This document shows, one piece after another, positions 37,798-52,498 of a stretch of 64,000 bases of DNA (position 1 is its first letter; each line of letters starts with the position of its first letter). The position numbers and the translations under genes are program-made. The DNA is from Fistulifera solaris (Eukaryota). The notes beneath the pieces were generated by a model. The model made no database searches. It had not been told where the DNA came from and saw only the letters and a program-made list of their open reading frames with translations. The stretch is from the NCBI GenBank assembly GCA_030295235.1, contig AP026130.1, positions 496,001 through 560,000 on the forward strand, given 5' to 3'.

Positions 37798-40700
37798 TCA
37801 ACTTTCTTTGTGGCTATCATCCAGAATATGACGAACTTTCTTCTTGGCTGGTTCGTCAACTTGGTTTGTGTCGACAACATTGATGCGGCGCTTCTCAACA
37901 ACGTGCTCCGTACTGCTTGTAGCAGGTCTAGTTGCTTCCCATTCGTGGTCAGAAGTAGCGGCAGTAACGTTGCTCTTTTCGACCTGTCCTTCCAAATCGG
38001 TATGCGCAGTACGATCATCATCGCTGGAACCATGTTGCGTGGCTTCAAGCACATTCTCAAGTGAAGTGGCGTGTGAGTCCGCTGCTTCATTTGTTGCTCC
38101 TAATGCTTGTTGCTGGGTTTCCTCTTCGTCGTCGCTTGCTGGCTCAAAAGCGTTGCAGACATCATCTGAATTTGACTTGACTTCGTTGGTCAATGATTGC
38201 TCTTCCTCATATTTCATTTCATCATCGGTGGATCCCTGTTGTGAACTTTGTTCAAGAACATTCTCGGAAGCGGTAGTCGACTGGAGTTCGCCTTCGAATA
38301 CTGCATGCGACGCGGAATCCTTGCTTGCTGCTCTTTCCTGTTCAAGCTCCGATTTGTCCTTGTCATGTCTTGGATCGCAGACGTTTTCATAACTGGCTGA
38401 TTCATATTTCGCTTCCATGACCGTGTTTTCCTTATAGTTTTCGTCTTCCTCGTCGGAATCATCATCATCAATCGATCGCGTTTGTCGTTTCGGACTGCTT
38501 TCAACCTTGGTAATTGCTTCACTATGCTTTTCAGATGTAGCTGTATTTGAATTGGCTTCTTTCAGCGTAACCTGCTCCCCTTTAAACTCCATTTCTTCAT
38601 CAGAATCGTCATCAATGGAGCGCTTCTGAGTTGTTCGTTTCGGACTGCTTCCAACAGTATTTGTCACTTGACGCTCGTTTTCAGAAGTTGGTAAATCTCC
38701 GATGGCTTCTGTCGACGTGCCCTGTTCCCCTTCAAAATCCATTTCTTCATCGGAATCATCATTAATGGAGCGTCGCGGAAATATTTGTTTCCGACTATTT
38801 TCAGCATTGTCCTTCGCTTCGAGCTCGTTTTCAGAAGTTGCCGAACTCGCCTCAGCTGCTTTCAACGTGAACTCTTCACCTTCAAACTCCATTTCTTCGT
38901 CAGAATCATCATCGATGACACGTTTTCGAGAGAGTCTTGTGGGATTGTCGCTGTTGCTTCCATTTGCGCCTGAACGATTTTCTTCGTTCGCTCCTGCACC
39001 TCGTGGGATACCCGAAGCCCCACCACGCTCAGTATCGTCATCAAACTCAGGTTCGTCGTCTTCCTCGTCCTCGTTGGCAAGTGCTTCAGAGTACTGACGC
39101 TCAAAGAACTCCTGCCTTTCAAGAAGAAGTTCGCGGTCGGCCAACATCCTGAGCTCTTCCGTGACGTACATATTGGTAACATGATCACAGAACTTATGTG
39201 ATAGCGGGTGCTTGAAAAGAGCTTCAACGAATAGCAACGGGTTCTCAGAAGCTAATTTTGCGAAATTCCCAACGGTCGTGACGCAAAAGTTCAAAACTGG
39301 TGTGAAGTCCTTGTCCTTGTACACACTTTTATCGTTGAGAATGGTATTAGCGACGTTCAGAAAATGATAATTGTAAAGCAAAGGTTCGAGCGTCACTTTC
39401 TTCGTGGCCAACAAATTCTGCGGGAGCCCTTCAGTTTCGTCCGGAGACGGTGCCTCAGGGACAGCTAATTTGACTTGCGCCAACCGAAGGAAGAACGACA
39501 CAATCCGGTGATTCACTTGGGGAGCATTCACGTGATATTGAGACAGCAACTGCGTATACATATGTACGGACTGGTTCGACACTATCTTCTTTGTAAAGTA
39601 GGCCATGACGTCGAAGCTAGCAGCAGCCGCTTTGAGCTTGTTAACGGTATCCTTTTGTCCTGAACGGTCTGGTTTCGAGAGGCCTTAGCGCTCAATTCGA
39701 GAAGCTTCATGGTCATGTGAATGATTTCCACAATATCGCAAAGATGCTCCCGTGTGTTTGTCCCTGGAGCCCATTTTGAAATAAGCTTCGGCAGACGATC
39801 TAAAGGGTCTCCGTTGTAAAACAAGCGATCCATTAAACCAACAGCCATAAGATGCTCCGTAGAATCCTCCGACTGATACATGATATGGAGGAGATGCATC
39901 ATTTCACTGAGCAATGCGACGGTCGGAACCATACGTCTGTGCTTCTTGTGCTGGTGAAACGTGTCGATAGCATTGAAGACCATGTTGAACGTAAAGATAT
40001 CCAGCGTAAAAATGAGCTGTCCCAAAACCTCTTTGGTCGAATCACTGCTGTCAGCTGTAATTGATTTGCGTCCCCCCGATCTCCACCACTGAGTTAAGAA
40101 CCACACGATATGGAAGAAGACGACTCGGTCATTATCTTCCAACCGAACCGAGTCCCTTCGGAATTCGTTTTTCAAACTCTTCATCACCGGGCCATAGCAC
40201 TCTTTCATAAAGCGCTGACAGAATTCGTCCAGGGTGCGGTGCGCGCGCTTGGAAATGGGACCGATCGTCAATCGACAACCCGATCGCGCGTGTACCTGCA
40301 GTGTAACAGAATTTCCCACAAAGCAATCCAACTTTTTACTTTTGCGTCGATTCACAATGAGTGCTGTAGCGTTGGTACTGGCAAACAATCCTGCGGATGT
40401 ACTGACATATTTCCCCTTTTCTCCGTGACGTCCTTTTAACTGGAGCGTCCCACCAAAGTTCGAATGTCGACTGGATACGGTCACCGCCAAAGCCTGTTTC
40501 TCGCGAGCGAGCTGTGCTTGCAGGGAACCGGGTTGACCCCGTCGCTGTTCCGGAACCGCCGGTCCCATGGATGCTTTCGCGACGGCCATGGGATCTTGGT
40601 TGCGAAAGAGATGGTGCAGCAATTCCATGAGTAACAAGTTGTACGGAGCGTTCTCTCGTTGCTCCAAATCAGCACAGAGTACATGAATAATATCCAAGAA

Positions 40701-45285: not shown

Positions 45286-48200
45286 ATGGTAACCGAATCC
45301 ATTAAAATCGATCAGAACAGGCTTCCCAGAACGCCGTCTCGTGACTTGCTTTCCAAGTCTCTCGACTATTCGAGCTATTTGACCCAGCAACCGCGGTACG
45401 TGCAACGACACTTTCAGTTGCACCGCATCACAGAATAATTCTCACTTTTAATATTTTCGTTAGAAAACGGCCTTATGCCCATCATGTCAGCGAGTTGTCC
45501 AGCATATCTCATGCAGGATATTTGCTGAAACGCAGCAATCGTCCGTATAAAATTGTGAACCCGTTTCCACGCGACGACCAAGAAGTCAATTTCAAATACG
45601 GAGGTCCTCGATTAAAACCGATTCTGTCGTCGCGGATCGAACTATCGGCCATTGACGATACCCTACCGCGACAGTTACTACTGATACCGCACGAAGAGAA
45701 TACAGTGCCGCATTTGTCAGAGACAAATGAAACTGAAAAACAGAAATGTTTCTACGAACAATCCACATGATGCCTTGGACCAAACACTACAATTCGCTGC
45801 ATCCTTTTTCGGTATACCGTTTGATCTTTTACCGAAGAATCAAGCAAAGGACGTGGACTTTGACGATGATGATTTGACATCACCGTTCGGAGATCCTTCA
45901 TCCCCTCCAACAACCCGCAGCATACCGATCCGAACGAAGAATCATCCCGAACCCGATACTGAACGACCGAGTCCGTTTCGTTTTTCATTTAGTTCATCAC
46001 AGTCCGAAGAACTGAAACATTTGGAGCACCGATCTCTCTCCGATTGCAGTCACCCGGGCGATTTTGTTGAAGACGATGGTCATATTTGGCGGGCGAGGTA
46101 CTGCATTTTAGAGGATGGAGTTTTGTACTTTTACCGACATCAGCAAGATGCCGAATCACCGGAAGCTCGCTTGGAGCGTCAACAAAAGAAAGGAGGGGAC
46201 GAAGCATCAAAACCATTGCCTTTGGGGTACAGCCCTATTCCCACAGTATATGCAAAAAGACCGGGAGGACACACAGGGTTCAAATTTGTGGGAAAAGCGT
46301 GTTGCTCTCAACTGTGTTGGAGCAGTACGTTCGGCAGAGTTTGAATACGGCAAAAATTCGTTCGAGCTCGCCGCGGTGGATGACGAAGGGGAAGAAAACG
46401 ACACGAAACTTGTTTTGCGCGCTCAGAGCAAAGAGGAAATGAATCAGTGGATGTTTCAGTTTCACTGCTCTATTCAGACGTATATTATGGGCATTATGGA
46501 TCATGTGGCTCCCTCACTAGGCGACATTCATCACCCATCTTTGTCGATATTAAAGGGGAAAGGTAGTAGTGATGCGAAAGGGGATGAATCGCCCAAGCGA
46601 TACTCCAGCTCTGCCTCCGTAGCACTCAGTCCGCATTCCCGGTGCAGCACAGGAGTTGGAAGTCTACCTCCACTGTCACACGGTCATGGACGAAACTCAA
46701 TGCATCGACGCCGTGCAAGGGATAAAGAGAGCGATCACATCAATATTGCCTCTTCCGTTCCCAATACGCCACTGTTGGCATCGATTCTCAGTCAACACAA
46801 ACGATCACTCGGTGAAGAGCCTAACCTTTCTCAGACAAGCCGACTTGTGACTCCCAGTCCTGTGACAGCGTCCCCGCTGCCAGCAAGGATTCCTTTGGAG
46901 AGCAGCTCACCTGAGCTCTCAGCGCCACAGACTGCTTGCCCGGAAACAGAGCATCCAATACCGAGTAAAAAATACGTTCCGCCACATTTGCGCAATCAAA
47001 CAGATTCAAATAAATACGTTCCGCCTCATTTGCGAAATAGAGATGAAGCTGTCCCTAACCGTAACGAAACGAGAAGGCCACAGTCGAAGGACTACGTGCC
47101 ACGGCATCTTCGGAAGACGCCGGTTGATGTCGAGCACACTACTGTGTGCTTGTCTCTGGAGGACCGTGCAGCTAGTCTTTCCATCGCCGTGCCAGATGAT
47201 AACGTAAAAGCAAGTGTTTTTGCTTTTGAGGCCAAAAATATCGCGCAAAGTTTTCAGCGTGATTTTAAATTGGGCGGATGCGCGGACCCATCCGTCATCG
47301 CCGGCTCCATTTTAGATGGCGAGTTCATACCGCGAAAGGCCTCGCGGCTTGGGAAAGTTCATACGGCTCCCTACGGTTGCACTTCGAAATCGAGCACATA
47401 TTCTTCGCCTACAGCCCCTGGACTTCGTTGGGAAATAGGCGCCGTGTCGGAATGCGGTGTCAGAGACTCCAACGAGGATTCGTATCTGATTGTCAGTGAT
47501 GTACTCGAGGCGTTTAAGGTTCTTTCATCAACCGAAGAAACTATCTGGGGTGAATTTGGAGATCATATTCCGGGGCTTTTTGCTATCTTTGATGGTCACT
47601 GCGGCAACCACGCTGCTCGTTATTCAGCTGAAAAGCTCATAGAAAACATTCACAGAAAGTCGATAAGGGTTTCAGCTCAAGATGCCAGTCAATTGTCGGA
47701 AGTCATAAGTGGAATCATTGAAGAAGCAATTTTTTGTCTCGACGATGACTTTTGTAATACTTGCGTCCAGGACGGAAGAGAATGGGATTCAGGTGCTACG
47801 GCGGTGATTGCTGCAGTCATCAACCAGAATTTAGTCGTGGCTAACCTAGGCGATGCCCGTGGTGTAATGAGTCGATCTGTTGATAGCAACGACAAAGCCA
47901 AAGATCTTTACCAAGAAGGATGGAATGAGATTCCAATCCCTGACCAGTTGTGCAGCAGACGCTGTTTTTGGAAAGATGTCACAGACACGCACAGTCCAGA
48001 TCGAAACGACGAGAGGCTGAGAATCCAGCAAGCCAACGGGTGGGTTACAACCGAGCAAGAAATTCCCATTTCCCAGCTTAAGCGTTTGGTGCTTGACGAT
48101 CAAGATGTCGTTGACATTTTGAAACGATGCTTTGCTGATCGCTTTCAACCGTCCCCAAGAGCAGCTGCACCCCAAAGAATCATTCGAATAGCAAGAGTGT

Positions 48201-48701
48201 GTGGTGAATTGGCTATATCTCGCGCCATCGGAGACCGGGATTTCAAAGCCCGTTACAATAGCACAGGCAAAGACAATCAAACCTGGGATGGATCCATGTT
48301 TTTGCCCTACCCGGATGACCATAACAGATCTTTCACTGGAGATTTGGTGAGCAACCAGCCTGAATTTCAGTCGTTTCGTCTGGGCCAAGAAGGAATACAT
48401 GATGAATTCTTGCTCCTGGCCTGCGACGGACTGTGGGATGTAATAGATTCGGATGATGTAAGTACCGAGTGCTAGGGGTATAGCTTATGAAGATGACAGC
48501 TCAATTCTCACTCTGCATCTTGTTTTTCAGGCCATCCGAGTCACTCATGATTTGTTGTTCGAAAAGAAGTGGCCCGCAAAGAAGGCAGCCGCCCGTTTGG
48601 CGGAGCTCGCAATCCACCTTGGATCCTCGGACAACATCACTGTCATTGTTGTACGCTTTTTCCATGGTCCTGACCGATATTCAGACAATCATGATTCATA
48701 A
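45286..48701 (+). CDS. PH-domain plus PP2C (PPM) protein phosphatase; introns 45396-45463 and 48458-48530, frameshifts near 45738 and 46241
   Basis: PH motifs HAGYLLKRS, WRARYCILEDGVLYFY, LVLRAQSKEEMNQW. PP2C motifs RDSNED, FDGHCG, NLGDAR, LAISRAIGD, LACDGLWD, GSSDNITV. Confidence 0.88.
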
Positions 48702-49107
48702 CGATCAGAGTATATTTTGTGTTATTGTGTATTTCTTGTTTTACCAATTTCGTGGCCTTCTGCCCTATGTCAGCGGCTCCATAATCTAGTCTAGAGATTT
48801 TTGGAAATGGCTGCACTAAAGAGAGTAAGTCGCGTAGATTGGATTATGGTTAGACCGTTGAGGCAAAGCTCACGAGGATTGAGTCTTGACCTTCCGGGAC
48901 TGGAGCTACAGGTCTTCATGGTTTAAAACCGAGAATCTCTGTTCGTATGAAAGACTTCATGCGAGGGGCCATAAAGAAACGTAGTAAGTTTTTAGATCAT
49001 GGCTTACCAGTAGCACTTATCGATCATCAAATCACAACAAACGTGTTCATGTTGGTTCATAGACTAGTTCATAGCTCATAGCATCCATCGGTGCACGTAC
49101 CAACACT

Positions 49108-50322
49108 GGGCAACCACTCCATGCTGGTGGACCTTTTTGGATTTTTATTGCTCGCGAGCGAAGCGAGCATGGGCAGACGCCGAAAGGCGTCTTTTCTCAA
49201 TAAATTTTCGCATTTCGTCGCGTTCGCACAAAACTGCGTTTCTCAATAAATTCTTTCATCGCCATCGACAACAAACTAGCGTTTTTAATTGAATTTCGCG
49301 AAACTATAGCTCTTTTTCAGCTCAAAACTCTTTCGTATGGATATGCGGTTTATACATGAGCCGTTTCTTGACGATCCTTGAGGGTAAGAGTGTTGATTTG
49401 TCGATTTTTAGGTCTTGCCGGCGATCGGAAAATCACTATCGATGGACAAAACATTGCCGGCAAAAGCTCTCCGAACGCCGGGAAACATATTGTCGCAATT
49501 TTATGACAATCTTCAAAAGCCTGTTGCTTCGCTCTCACCGTTCTCGCAAGAAAAGGCTTCTTTATCGTCTCATTCTTGCAATTCGATTTTCGCATCAACA
49601 TTTTCTTTCTCCTGGCGTCGAAGCACCAACTTCGCACGAGCATCGGAACCGCTTAAATTCGATTATGTATGTCTCCATAGTGAAAAATATTGAATATTAA
49701 GTATCTATTAGCAAAAGATCATCTATGTTTCCTCTGATAAATCATTGTCGGGACCAAACTAAGGATTGACTTTCTACGCGAAAATCGCTTCATGCCTTGC
49801 GGAATCGACTTCAACTGCACGCTCGCCGGATTTAAGTTTCCATTCAGAGTTCTTAATTTTAAGACCAGAGATTTTGCGGAGGTTTAAGGCAAGCTACAGG
49901 CCGAGAAAAAAAAAATAAAGGGCAACCCGGCCAATTCCGAAAAGATACCGCCGCTGTCTTTCCATGAAGCTTTTTTGATCGCTGCGTACGCGGTTAAGAC
50001 ATGAACTACTATTGCTCTTCATTTGAATCCACAGAATATGAAAATCGCTGGTTTTTGCAACAATAGCTTGATCCAAAAAGTGACGATGGATCCTCATTTT
50101 TGACCCGCCCGCCCGGATCGCGTACAGACGCTCTAAAAGTCGCTTTTGGATAACGCATTCTGATTGGTTGGAGCTTTTGGACTTTTTTGGATGAAAGCCA
50201 TCTGATTGGCTGCATCCAAAAAGTTTTTTGGATGGCATGTCGCTTTGGTATGTCTGCTTCCTAAGTAAATCCAACGACGGACGGTCCAAAAGGTCCACCA
50301 GCATGGAGTGGTTGCATGACCC
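49108..50322. mobile_element. Non-autonomous inverted-repeat element, copy 1 (1215 bp)
   Basis: Starts GG-GCAACCACTCCATGCTGGTGGACCTTTTTGGA and ends TCCAAAAGGTCCACCAGCATGGAGTGGTTGC-ATGACCC. No credible ORF. Confidence 0.75.
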
Positions 50323-51536
50323 GGGCAACCACTCCATGCTGGTGGACCTTTTGGATTTTTATTGCTCGCGAGCGAAGCGAGCAATAGACAGACGCCGAAA
50401 GGCGTCTTTTCTCAATAAATTTTCGCATTTCGTCGCGTTCGCACAAAACTGCGTTTCTCAATAAATTCTTTCATCGCCATCGACAACAAACTAGCGTTTT
50501 TAATTGAATTTCGCGAAACTATAGCTCTTTTTCAGCTCAAAACTCTTTCGTATGGATATGCGGTTTATACATGAGCCGTTTCTTGACGATCCTTGAGGGT
50601 AAGAGTGTTGATTTGTCGATTTTTAGGTCTTGCCGGCGATCGGAAAATCACTATCGATGGACAAAACATTGCCGGCAAAAGCTCTCCGAACGCCGGGAAA
50701 CATATTGTCGCAATTTTATGACAATCTTCAAAAGCCTGTTGCTTCGCTCTCACCGTTCTCGCAAGAAAAGGCTTCTTTATCGTCTCATTCTTGCAATTCG
50801 ATTTTCGCATCAACATTTTCTTTCTCCTGGCGTCGAAGCACCAACTTCGCACGAGCATCGGAACCGCTTAAATTCGATTATGTATGTCTCCATAGTGAAA
50901 AATATTGAATATTAAGTATCTATTAGCAAAAGATCATCTATGTTTCCTCTGATAAATCATTGTCGGGACCAAACTAAGGATTGACTTTCTACGCGAAAAT
51001 CGCTTCATGCCTTGCGGAATCGACTTCAACTGCACGCTCGCCGGATTTAAGTTTCCATTCAGAGTTCTTAATTTTAAGACCAGAGATTTTGCGGAGGTTT
51101 AAGGCAAGCTACAGGCCGAGAAAAAAAAAATAAAGGGCAACCCGGCCAATTCCGAAAAGATACCGCCGCTGTCTTTCCATGAAGCTTTTTTGATCGCTGC
51201 GTACGCGGTTAAGACATGAACTACTATTGCTCTTCATTTGAATCCACAGAATATGAAAATCGCTGGTTTTTGCAACAATAGCTTGATCCAAAAAGTGACG
51301 ATGGATCCTCATTTTTGACCCGCCCGCCCGGATCGCGTACAGACGCTCTAAAAGTCGCTTTTGGATAACGCATTCTGATTGGTTGGAGCTTTTGGACTTT
51401 TTGGATGAAAGCCATCTGATTGGCTGCATCCAAAAAGTTTTTGGATGGCATGTCGCTTTGGTATGTCTGCTTCCTAAGTAAATCCAACGACGGACGGTCC
51501 AAAAAGGTCCACCAGCATGGAGTGGTTGCATGACCC
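50323..51536. mobile_element. Non-autonomous inverted-repeat element, copy 2 (1214 bp), head-to-tail with copy 1
   Basis: Near-identical to 49108-50322; duplicated ORF translations are offset by 1215 in the ORF track. Confidence 0.75.
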
Positions 51537-51661
51537 GATTTCTTTCCCCGCTGCCCGCGCAAAAGCCGCAGCTCAATTATTATTGTTTGCGATCGCTGCA
51601 TTACATTTTCTTTTGATCGAATTGCTAGTCCTCGACACAATTAAAGCGGGCACTCTGAAGG

Positions 51662-52498
51662 ATGGCGTCGAAAGCAATGGAGACCGAGAGCCCCGAGAAG
51701 CAAGATAAGCCTCCTACTGTATCAGAACACGCACCGAATTTGGCTGGTTCGGTGATAACAGCAGACGCTTTGGGTGACGAAAAAATCGGTAAGTTCGATA
51801 ACGGCTGCTCGTCATTCAAGAGTTTTGAAGTAATCTCACACTTTATTTCTCTGTGTTTGTATTTTAGTCATTCGCATTCAAAATATTGCTTCCACCGTCA
51901 ATCTTGGTGTTCGGCTGGATTTGAAGAAGATTGCCCTCAAATGCCGCAACACCGAATTCAACCCACGGCGCTTTGGTGCCGTCATTATGCGATTGCGAGA
52001 ACCCCGAGCCACCGCTCTCATTTTGCGACAGGGAAAATGGTAGTGACGGGCGTTCGATCGACCCACAATGCGGAATTAGCGAGCAAAAAGTTTGCGTACA
52101 TTATCGAGCGTGTGGGTTTCAAACCGACGGATACATTTGAATTCAAAGTACGCAATATCGTGGGTACGGCGGATGTTGGTTTCCCTATACGTTTGGAAGG
52201 GTTAGTTTATGCGCACTCGGCGTTTGCTTCCTACGAACCGGAGCTCTTTCCAGGCTTAATTTATCGATTGGTGGCACCCGAAAAAGTGGTTCTACTAATT
52301 TTTGTATCCGGAAAGATTGTGATCACCGGCGCAAAGAAAGAATCCGAAATATCCGCAGCCGTGACTAAGATATATCCTACTCTGTTGGAATTTCGAAAAG
52401 CACACGTCGCAGCTCCCTTGATTCCTCCCGAACCGCCTGCCGCACAAGCAGCAGCTCTGGCGGACGATGAAACGCTCAAACAAACGAGCACGTTATAG
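51662..52498 (+). CDS. TBP: TATA-box binding protein; intron 51789-51867, frameshift 52021-52024
   Basis: [18 protein letters not shown]...[43 protein letters not shown]...[13 protein letters not shown]...[14 protein letters not shown]. Confidence 0.95.

Follow-up and report, generated by a model that had tools for sequence, protein, structure and literature searches.

How does a noncoding element of 1.2 kb come to stand twice, head to tail, at a single site, and does such an arrangement point to a new kind of mobile element? The question is raised by a 64-kb stretch of Fistulifera solaris DNA (contig AP026130.1, positions 496,001 to 560,000 of the forward strand; hereafter the window), in which a unit of 1215 bp (49108-50322) is adjoined in direct orientation by a near-identical unit of 1214 bp (50323-51536). 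An original prediction had described the pair as a dimer of a nonautonomous element with asymmetric inverted repeats, directly abutted ends and no target-site duplication (TSD), and had leaned toward a rolling-circle element of the HUH type (Helitron2/Helentron). With the element termini redefined from public contigs, we consider it rather probable that the locus holds two copies of a nonautonomous terminal-inverted-repeat transposon of the DDE type, and that the dimer arose when another copy inserted into the target sequence next to the first. The dimer structure is one already known from other transposons and is not a sign of a new rolling-circle element.

The two units were 99.4% identical over 1217 alignment columns, in agreement with the original prediction, and the 7 columns that differed were three clustered at 49168-49173 and four single-base changes in homopolymer length (49134, 50183, 50224 and 50287). 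Each of the four unit ends carried an inverted repeat, the arms of which were perfect over 28-32 nt, and a 24-nt core of the repeat occurred at four sites in the window, every one of them a unit end, compared with an expectation of 0 from 100 shuffles. The tandem repeat is real in the assembly, and the inverted repeat lies far beyond chance.

The termini of the element were placed by means of other copies of the family. Seven public runs shared words with the region, and four of them, from four studies (X1-X4), were aligned as contigs on 48700-50400, a stretch that corresponds to one unit plus the junction and covers the left flank junction, the right flank junction lying outside it. X1 is possibly the source data of the window itself, while X2 (a wetland metagenome), X3 (a run of another organism) and X4 (a freshwater metatranscriptome) constitute independent support from three studies; the data are contigs rather than raw reads, and our statements cover the contigs listed. 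Similarity to the element began at 49109 in eight contigs from the four runs: loose ends preceded this position in four X1 contigs (flank agreement 0.53), two X2 contigs and one X4 contig, and an X3 contig (record 16) was aligned from 49109 onward. A further X1 contig (record 1, 48700-49136, 0 mismatches) crossed the left flank junction, as the source data of the window may do. On the right, an X3 contig (record 19) was aligned up to 50315 and continued into 127 nt of unrelated sequence, and two X2 contigs departed from the window sequence slightly earlier, at 50302 and 50306. The unique flank had no cover from X2 and X3. A 1760-nt X1 contig (record 8), which has just the right 120 nt in common with the element, is a candidate fragment of a longer copy. 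Because the similarity of other copies starts at 49109 and stops at 50315, the family ends are probably 5'-GGCAACC (49109) and GGTTGC-3' (50315), in place of the GGGCAACC and GCATGACCC previously proposed as unit ends; ATGACCC, which follows the point at which contigs of other copies stop, therefore falls outside the family's end. Alignment with other copies, which had been suggested as a check, thus defined the termini, albeit with a single contig for the right end and no copy with both flanks.

The same ends recurred in different flanks in all four runs, and no open reading frame (ORF) of the unit carried a recognizable domain, which upholds the earlier view of a nonautonomous member of a mobile-element family. 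Of the 54 contigs placed from X1, 41 had less than 99% identity, and the summed word depth of this run was 292 and 254 at the two ends compared with 17.8 in the flank; since word depth is no measure of copy number, the multicopy status rests on the distinct flanks. The family ends were present at ~85-99% identity in the X2 wetland metagenome, the X3 run of another organism and the X4 freshwater metatranscriptome, and the family is therefore not limited to one strain; their presence in the X4 RNA library is no proof of transcription. Three internal skips in the contigs (49194-49259, 49279-49539 and 49563-50103), with sides of only 25-26 nt, are weak hints of deletion variants.

Under the redefined termini, the order of the locus is CAACACTG - element 1 - ATGACCCG - element 2 - ATGACCCG - ATTTC.... 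Copy 1 (49109..50315, plus strand) is a noncoding element of 1207 bp that reads 5'-GGCAACC...GGTTGC-3', its termini being those of the contigs of other copies, and copy 2 (50324..51529, plus strand) measures 1206 bp. Between them lies the junction spacer ATGACCCG (50316..50323), identical to the 8 nt that follow copy 2 (51530..51537), and these two sites are the only occurrences of ATGACCCG in the whole window. We regard ATGACCCG as probably flank, with one occurrence in the junction and another to the right of unit 2, where it would represent the right target-site copy. The claim of directly abutted ends consequently does not survive the redefinition, as 8 nt of ATGACCCG separate the elements. 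The inverted repeats reported at each end stand, with perfect pairing over 28-32 nt, but their asymmetry (2 nt inside the left end, 7 nt inside the right) arose from flank counted as element. Similarly, the absence of a TSD holds for the dimer as a whole, its outer flanks (left CAACACTG, right ATGACCCG) having no duplicated sequence in common, but not for copy 2, which is bounded by a perfect 8-nt direct repeat of ATGACCCG. Copy 1 has no such duplication: the 8 nt on its left, CAACACTG (49101..49108), are not a copy of the junction octamer and share 2 of 8 positions with it. The duplication around copy 2 would shorten to 7 nt if base 50316 belonged to the element and would lengthen to 9 nt and include a mismatch if G49109 belonged to the flank; the eight contigs that start at 49109 speak against the latter. 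On the left, the bound of the duplicated unit and the terminus of the element fall on the same base, and on the right the bound lies 8 nt past the other terminus; such bounds would fit a transposase-made junction and not a random 1.2-kb tandem duplication.

This arrangement has close counterparts in Drosophila. Tandem dimers of the P-element and hobo carry exactly 8 nt, the length of their TSD, in the head-to-tail junction, and for these dimers, as for those of bacterial transposons, the proposed origin is double insertion at a single target site (McGurk & Barbash 2018, PMC5932611, in the sections cited). The present locus resembles the P and hobo dimers in that two full inverted-repeat DNA transposons stand head to tail with one 8-nt spacer derived from the site, and differs from them in that the outer left target copy is absent and that a single locus is at hand. 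The junction spacer is a ATGACCCG of TSD length, as in P and hobo, and it is on this likeness that the reading of double insertion is built. The terminal repeats, the short subterminal repeats and the lack of a domain in any frame are typical of nonautonomous class II elements. An exact internal contig of X1 (record 3, 580 nt, 0 mismatches) had a depth of 31.9 compared with 17.8 for the flank contig (record 1), a ratio of about 1.8 that is compatible with two copies, contig depth being a rough measure.

The sequence of events that would account for the locus begins with an element of ~1207 bp, 5'-GGCAACCACTCC...GGAGTGGTTGC-3', with 32-33-nt terminal repeats and a subterminal TTTTGGA array, belonging to a family that would have several copies in the host organism and would also be represented by relatives in further freshwater samples. 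Mobilization would take place in trans, through a DDE-type transposase with its gene at some other locus, and this enzyme would make a staggered target cut of about 8 bp (7-9 possible). A second copy would then have inserted into the 8-bp ATGACCCG abutting the right end of the first copy, so that the junction and the right flank would each keep one copy of the target, and a separate event, which could be a deletion of adjacent sequence or an ectopic exchange with some other copy, would have removed or replaced the third ATGACCCG to the left of copy 1. We infer the enzyme class, the insertional origin of copy 2 and the event at the missing left ATGACCCG from the structure of the locus.

Several observations weigh against double insertion. 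Its main weakness, which bears equally on every rival, is the missing third target copy: the expected order is target-element-target-element-target, yet 49101-49108 reads CAACACTG, and with the left ATGACCCG absent an additional unobserved event is therefore needed. The 8-nt repeat is no independent proof of insertion, as it is also expected from any in-situ duplication of "element + 8 nt". The right terminus was obtained from one foreign contig (X3) together with the symmetry of the repeats; this contig has C where the window has A (50316), a C that would complete a GG...CC repeat, and the mismatch leaves the last base of the element, and with it the choice between a 7-nt and an 8-nt duplication, ambiguous. 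The length of the TSD is known from copy 2 alone. It is across the dimer, not within a unit, that repeat arms match each other perfectly, which a simple double insertion does not predict. Finally, none of the 103 ORFs of at least 110 aa in the window, exclusive of the dimer and its two neighboring genes, encoded a transposase. The reading would be contradicted if full-length copies in the rest of the genome all ended in ...GGTTGCATGACCC and lacked a flanking direct repeat.

The pairing of the arms can be described more exactly. The left terminal inverted repeat of copy 1 (49109..49141, plus strand) has the T5 form and pairs perfectly over 32 nt (49110-49141 with 51498-51529) with the A5 arm at the right of element 2, so that the outer arms are of the T5/A5 form. 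The right terminal inverted repeat of copy 1 (50285..50315, minus strand) has the A4 form and pairs perfectly over 31 nt with the T4 arm at 50325-50355, so that the inner arms are of the A4/T4 form, while perfect pairing of the arms within one unit extends over only 28 nt. Among other copies, A5 was the commoner form at the right arm (256.8 of 330.7 depth in X1) and T5 at the left. The two correlated one-base losses in the inner arms suggest either templated correction within the palindrome or a symmetric consensus error. The two inverted repeats abutting at the junction form a near-perfect palindrome of 71 nt (50285..50355), which folded into a 31-bp stem of -41.5 kcal/mol (z = -12.6), a stability reached by 0 of 200 shuffles. 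A search of 48500-52000 against Rfam returned just three sub-threshold matches to microRNA models at this hairpin (29 bits compared with a gathering score of 130). The hairpin is a potential cruciform or source of small RNA, 1.3 kb upstream of the TBP-like gene.

The principal alternative is duplication of a resident copy and its 8-bp flank in situ, with no second insertion. Three routes would lead to it: a circle of "element + 8 nt" with abutted ends, formed as in copy-out-paste-in insertion sequences (IS) or by the element's own ends inserting into the adjacent target copy, could recombine back into the resident copy; an IS-type dimer could form between sister chromatids; or unequal exchange or slippage could occur between 8-bp target repeats. 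Each would yield what is seen at the junction, namely a right end and a left end with the 8 nt of the right flank between them, and the 99.4% identity of the units is in keeping with them. In copy-out-paste-in IS families, the circle junction holds a few bases of donor flank, typically of TSD length, between abutted repeats (PMC9587614, in the sections cited), and the junction described here resembles it. The likeness to dimers and circle junctions of the IS3 and IS256 type (PMC9587614; dimers in PMC5932611, both in the sections cited) extends to the abutted inverted repeats and the TSD-length spacer derived from the donor flank; unlike those systems, the host here is eukaryotic. The outer arms pair with each other, as do the inner arms, as would be the case for a circularly permuted unit inside one element. 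All arms of a circle made from the resident copy should be alike, however, and the combination of A4/T4 with T5/A5 forms needs a later change; moreover, two donor copies would account slightly better for the differences clustered at 49168-49173. For the absent target copy on the left, duplication in situ offers no better explanation than double insertion, and we know of no eukaryotic family with 8-bp duplications for which a copy-out-paste-in pathway is established. One locus cannot separate the two readings, and we hold duplication in situ to be unlikely as the origin of the dimer. A more specific proposal, that the dimer is the fossil trace of IS-like, replicative transposition by a eukaryotic element of the DDE class (e.g., of the Merlin/IS1595 type), with a circle or sister-chromatid dimer captured in the chromosome, appears quite improbable; the pairing of arms across the dimer and the flank-derived spacer are compatible with such a fossil and do not demonstrate it.

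An assembly artefact, in which a single genomic copy was duplicated by the assembler, would be a further account. Four of the seven differences between the units are homopolymer lengths, typical of consensus error, and the inner arms carry symmetric one-base differences such as would result from palindrome reads piled up both ways. The junction itself, which the original prediction had wished to see confirmed in reads, was bridged over 50316-50324 by no listed contig. Yet each unit has an anchor in unique flanking sequence, the exact internal X1 contig has the ~1.8-fold depth given above (X1 may be the source, and depth is not copy number), and a contig of depth 14.6 (approximately single-copy) lies on 50353-50400, the stretch with the variant proper to unit 2 (again from X1, which may be the source). 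An exact 8-nt target-like spacer would also be an odd coincidence, and we judge an artefact improbable. The Helitron-like reading, in which a TSD-free HUH element with ends GGGCAACC... and ...GCATGACCC and asymmetric subterminal inverted repeats was concatenated by rolling-circle replication, is very improbable. It accords with the head-to-tail order and with the lack of a duplication around the whole dimer, and both tandem occurrence and insertion that makes no TSD are known in Helitrons (PMC7492417, in the sections cited). Other copies, however, start at 49109 rather than 49108 and stop at 50315, 7 nt short of the proposed right end. In Helentron-derived HINEs the subterminal repeats measure 11-12 nt and a 3' palindrome comes after them (PMC7492417, as excerpted), whereas the repeats at this locus are terminal, symmetric and 32-33 nt long, direct inspection disclosed no palindrome after the right repeat, and the exact 8-nt direct repeat flanking copy 2 is left unexplained. 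The lean toward an HUH element is not supported, because the asymmetric inverted repeats, the TSD-free insertion and the abutted ends on which it was based vanish with the redefined termini.

The superfamily to which the element belongs can be narrowed to a limited extent. Of the features of class II elements, both terminal inverted repeats and the same ends in different flanks were found. Tc1/mariner (TA), piggyBac/Kolobok (TTAA) and PIF/Harbinger (TWA) were rejected, as the flanks lack such sequences. By our rough estimate, assignment to MULE is possible and tentative, as is assignment to some superfamily other than the three considered here; Merlin is slightly less probable, and hAT is rather unlikely. 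Merlin elements have a terminal GG, repeats of 24-462 bp and a TSD of 8 or 9 bp (PMC8101967, as excerpted). The element shares these structural traits, with its GGCAACC start, its 32-33-nt repeats and an 8-nt duplication that is seen at copy 2 only; the hallmark of the superfamily is a DDE_Tnp_IS1595 transposase. To our knowledge, subterminal repeat arrays have not been reported as a hallmark of Merlin. Stramenopile Merlins are reported, in the sections of PMC8101967 cited, only from the oomycete genera Phytophthora and Aphanomyces; a survey of diatom repeats names 12 class II superfamilies, with hAT and MuDR but not Merlin among those listed in the portion cited (PMC7466962); and, judged by title, none of the papers matched in the literature concerned a diatom Merlin.

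MULE terminal repeats are typically >100 bp with a TSD of 8-10 bp, and the terminus of Muta1 is GGGTCTACCC (PMC5499845, as excerpted); a MULE of Phaeodactylum, active in this diatom, has terminal repeats of ~200 bp and a 9-bp TSD (bioRxiv 10.1101/2023.01.02.522487). The element is like MULEs in its G-rich terminus and its short subterminal repeats, unequal at the two ends, and the 8-nt repeat around copy 2 is compatible with their TSD length. It is unlike them in that the similarity of its inverted repeats ends after ~33 nt: in a comparison of the left 260 nt with the reverse complement of the right 260 nt, clean pairing was confined to the first ~33 nt, well short of the long repeats of the superfamily. 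Short-repeat MULEs exist, and the short repeats lower the chance of MULE membership and do not exclude it. The terminal motif of hAT elements is YARNG, compared with the GGCAA found here. Of the hAT traits, only the TSD of 8 bp (PMC5499845, as excerpted) agrees with what is seen, namely the 8-nt repeat around copy 2.

The subterminal regions hold a short repeated motif of possible function. TTTTGGA/TCCAAAA occurred at 8 sites per unit, of which 7 lay within the last 250 nt on the right, each terminal repeat having one site, and the 2.4-kb dimer contained 16 of the 27 sites in the 64-kb window. The right subterminal cluster of copy 1 spans 50072..50291 and is matched by a cluster at 51287-51504 in copy 2. 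These arrays are candidate transposase-binding sites; in MULEs such as Muta1, short subterminal repeats, which are unequal in number at the two ends of nonautonomous derivatives, are transposase-binding arrays (PMC5499845, as excerpted). In addition, the right subterminal region of each unit contains two GATTGG motifs, the complement of a CCAAT box (50160-50210 and 51375-51425), and GATTGGCTG was likewise present in the loose ends of related copies from X1 and X3. Some 65 nt into the element from the left lies GACGCC-GAAA-GGCGTC, a short hairpin with perfect pairing, followed by a T run (49174-49198, and 50390-50413 in the second unit), and two copies of TTCTCAATAAATT lie ~50 nt apart beyond it; one X1 contig swaps out the stretch between the two TTCTCAATAAATT copies (joint at 49194-49259).

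The absence of a transposase ORF from the dimer, already stated in the original prediction, was borne out by profile searches. None of 33 stop-to-stop frames of at least 30 aa in unit 1 matched Pfam at E <= 0.05, and the five ATG-initiated ORFs of the unit gave just matches far below the curated cut-offs. A 139-aa frame across the right end, compared with proteins of near length in a collection of 5.8 billion, yielded 8 candidates, none with E <= 0.001.

Searches with the terminal repeat in other sequence collections returned no copies of the element. When metagenomes were scanned for a 20-nt core of the terminal repeat, 68 loci were identified, none of them an element copy, and blastn of unit 1 against these loci gave matches of 24-28 nt at the pattern only. 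Their contexts were bacterial coding sequence: among the 65 of 68 that were classified, 54 encoded ...GGTDNHSMLVDLR..., 8 encoded ...GHSMLVDPWG... and 3 encoded ...HSMLVDPDAPF.... We take the genes with ...GGTDNHSMLVDLR... to be those of serine hydroxymethyltransferase. The 68 loci were rejected as copies of the family, since the similarity ends at 24-28 nt, and were regarded as chance hits. The terminal repeat at 49109-49136 is identical over 24-28 nt (best 27/28) to the conserved bacterial stretch ...DNHSMLVDL..., a likeness that is probably a coincidence of a huge database; the extension of 4-5 nt past the searched 20-mer was slightly above expectation. Prokaryote genome contigs scanned with a 22-mer and viral contigs scanned with a 21-mer gave 0 matches each.

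The dimer lies between an ORF with a PP2C domain (46115-48475, E = 1.5e-34) and an ORF with a TBP domain (51662-52498, E = 2.4e-36), upstream of the latter, with 124 bp between its end and the ATG of the TBP-like ORF; an effect on the promoter of this gene is possible. The window is gene-dense and encodes plastid-related proteins (Ycf34, D27-like and PAP-fibrillin) together with ordinary eukaryotic housekeeping genes, a combination that fits a photosynthetic eukaryote. Elsewhere in the window, a 150-nt tandem repeat (2.4 copies, 75% matches) was noted at 38553-38917, within a long minus-strand open frame (37801-39684) without a match in Pfam.

The element itself is new and unclassified, but its kind is known, and so is the arrangement of its copies. 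Should double insertion be the right reading, the locus would be a neat but unexceptional case of a process by which transposons are already known to become paired in tandem, and such a pair is a possible seed of satellite DNA. The points worth pursuing are the missing third target copy, the pairing of arms across the dimer and the identity of the transposase. Lying 124 bp upstream of the TBP-like ORF and bearing a palindrome with a 31-bp stem, the dimer may affect the expression or the stability of the locus. The exact ends (GGCAACC...GGTTGC), the probable 8-bp duplication and the candidate TTTTGGA binding motif are at hand for mining the genome for an autonomous partner. The family has as its host a photosynthetic, stramenopile-like alga, and the DNA transposons of diatoms are poorly catalogued; assignment to Merlin, if true, would extend that superfamily to a new lineage, as its first member in diatoms.

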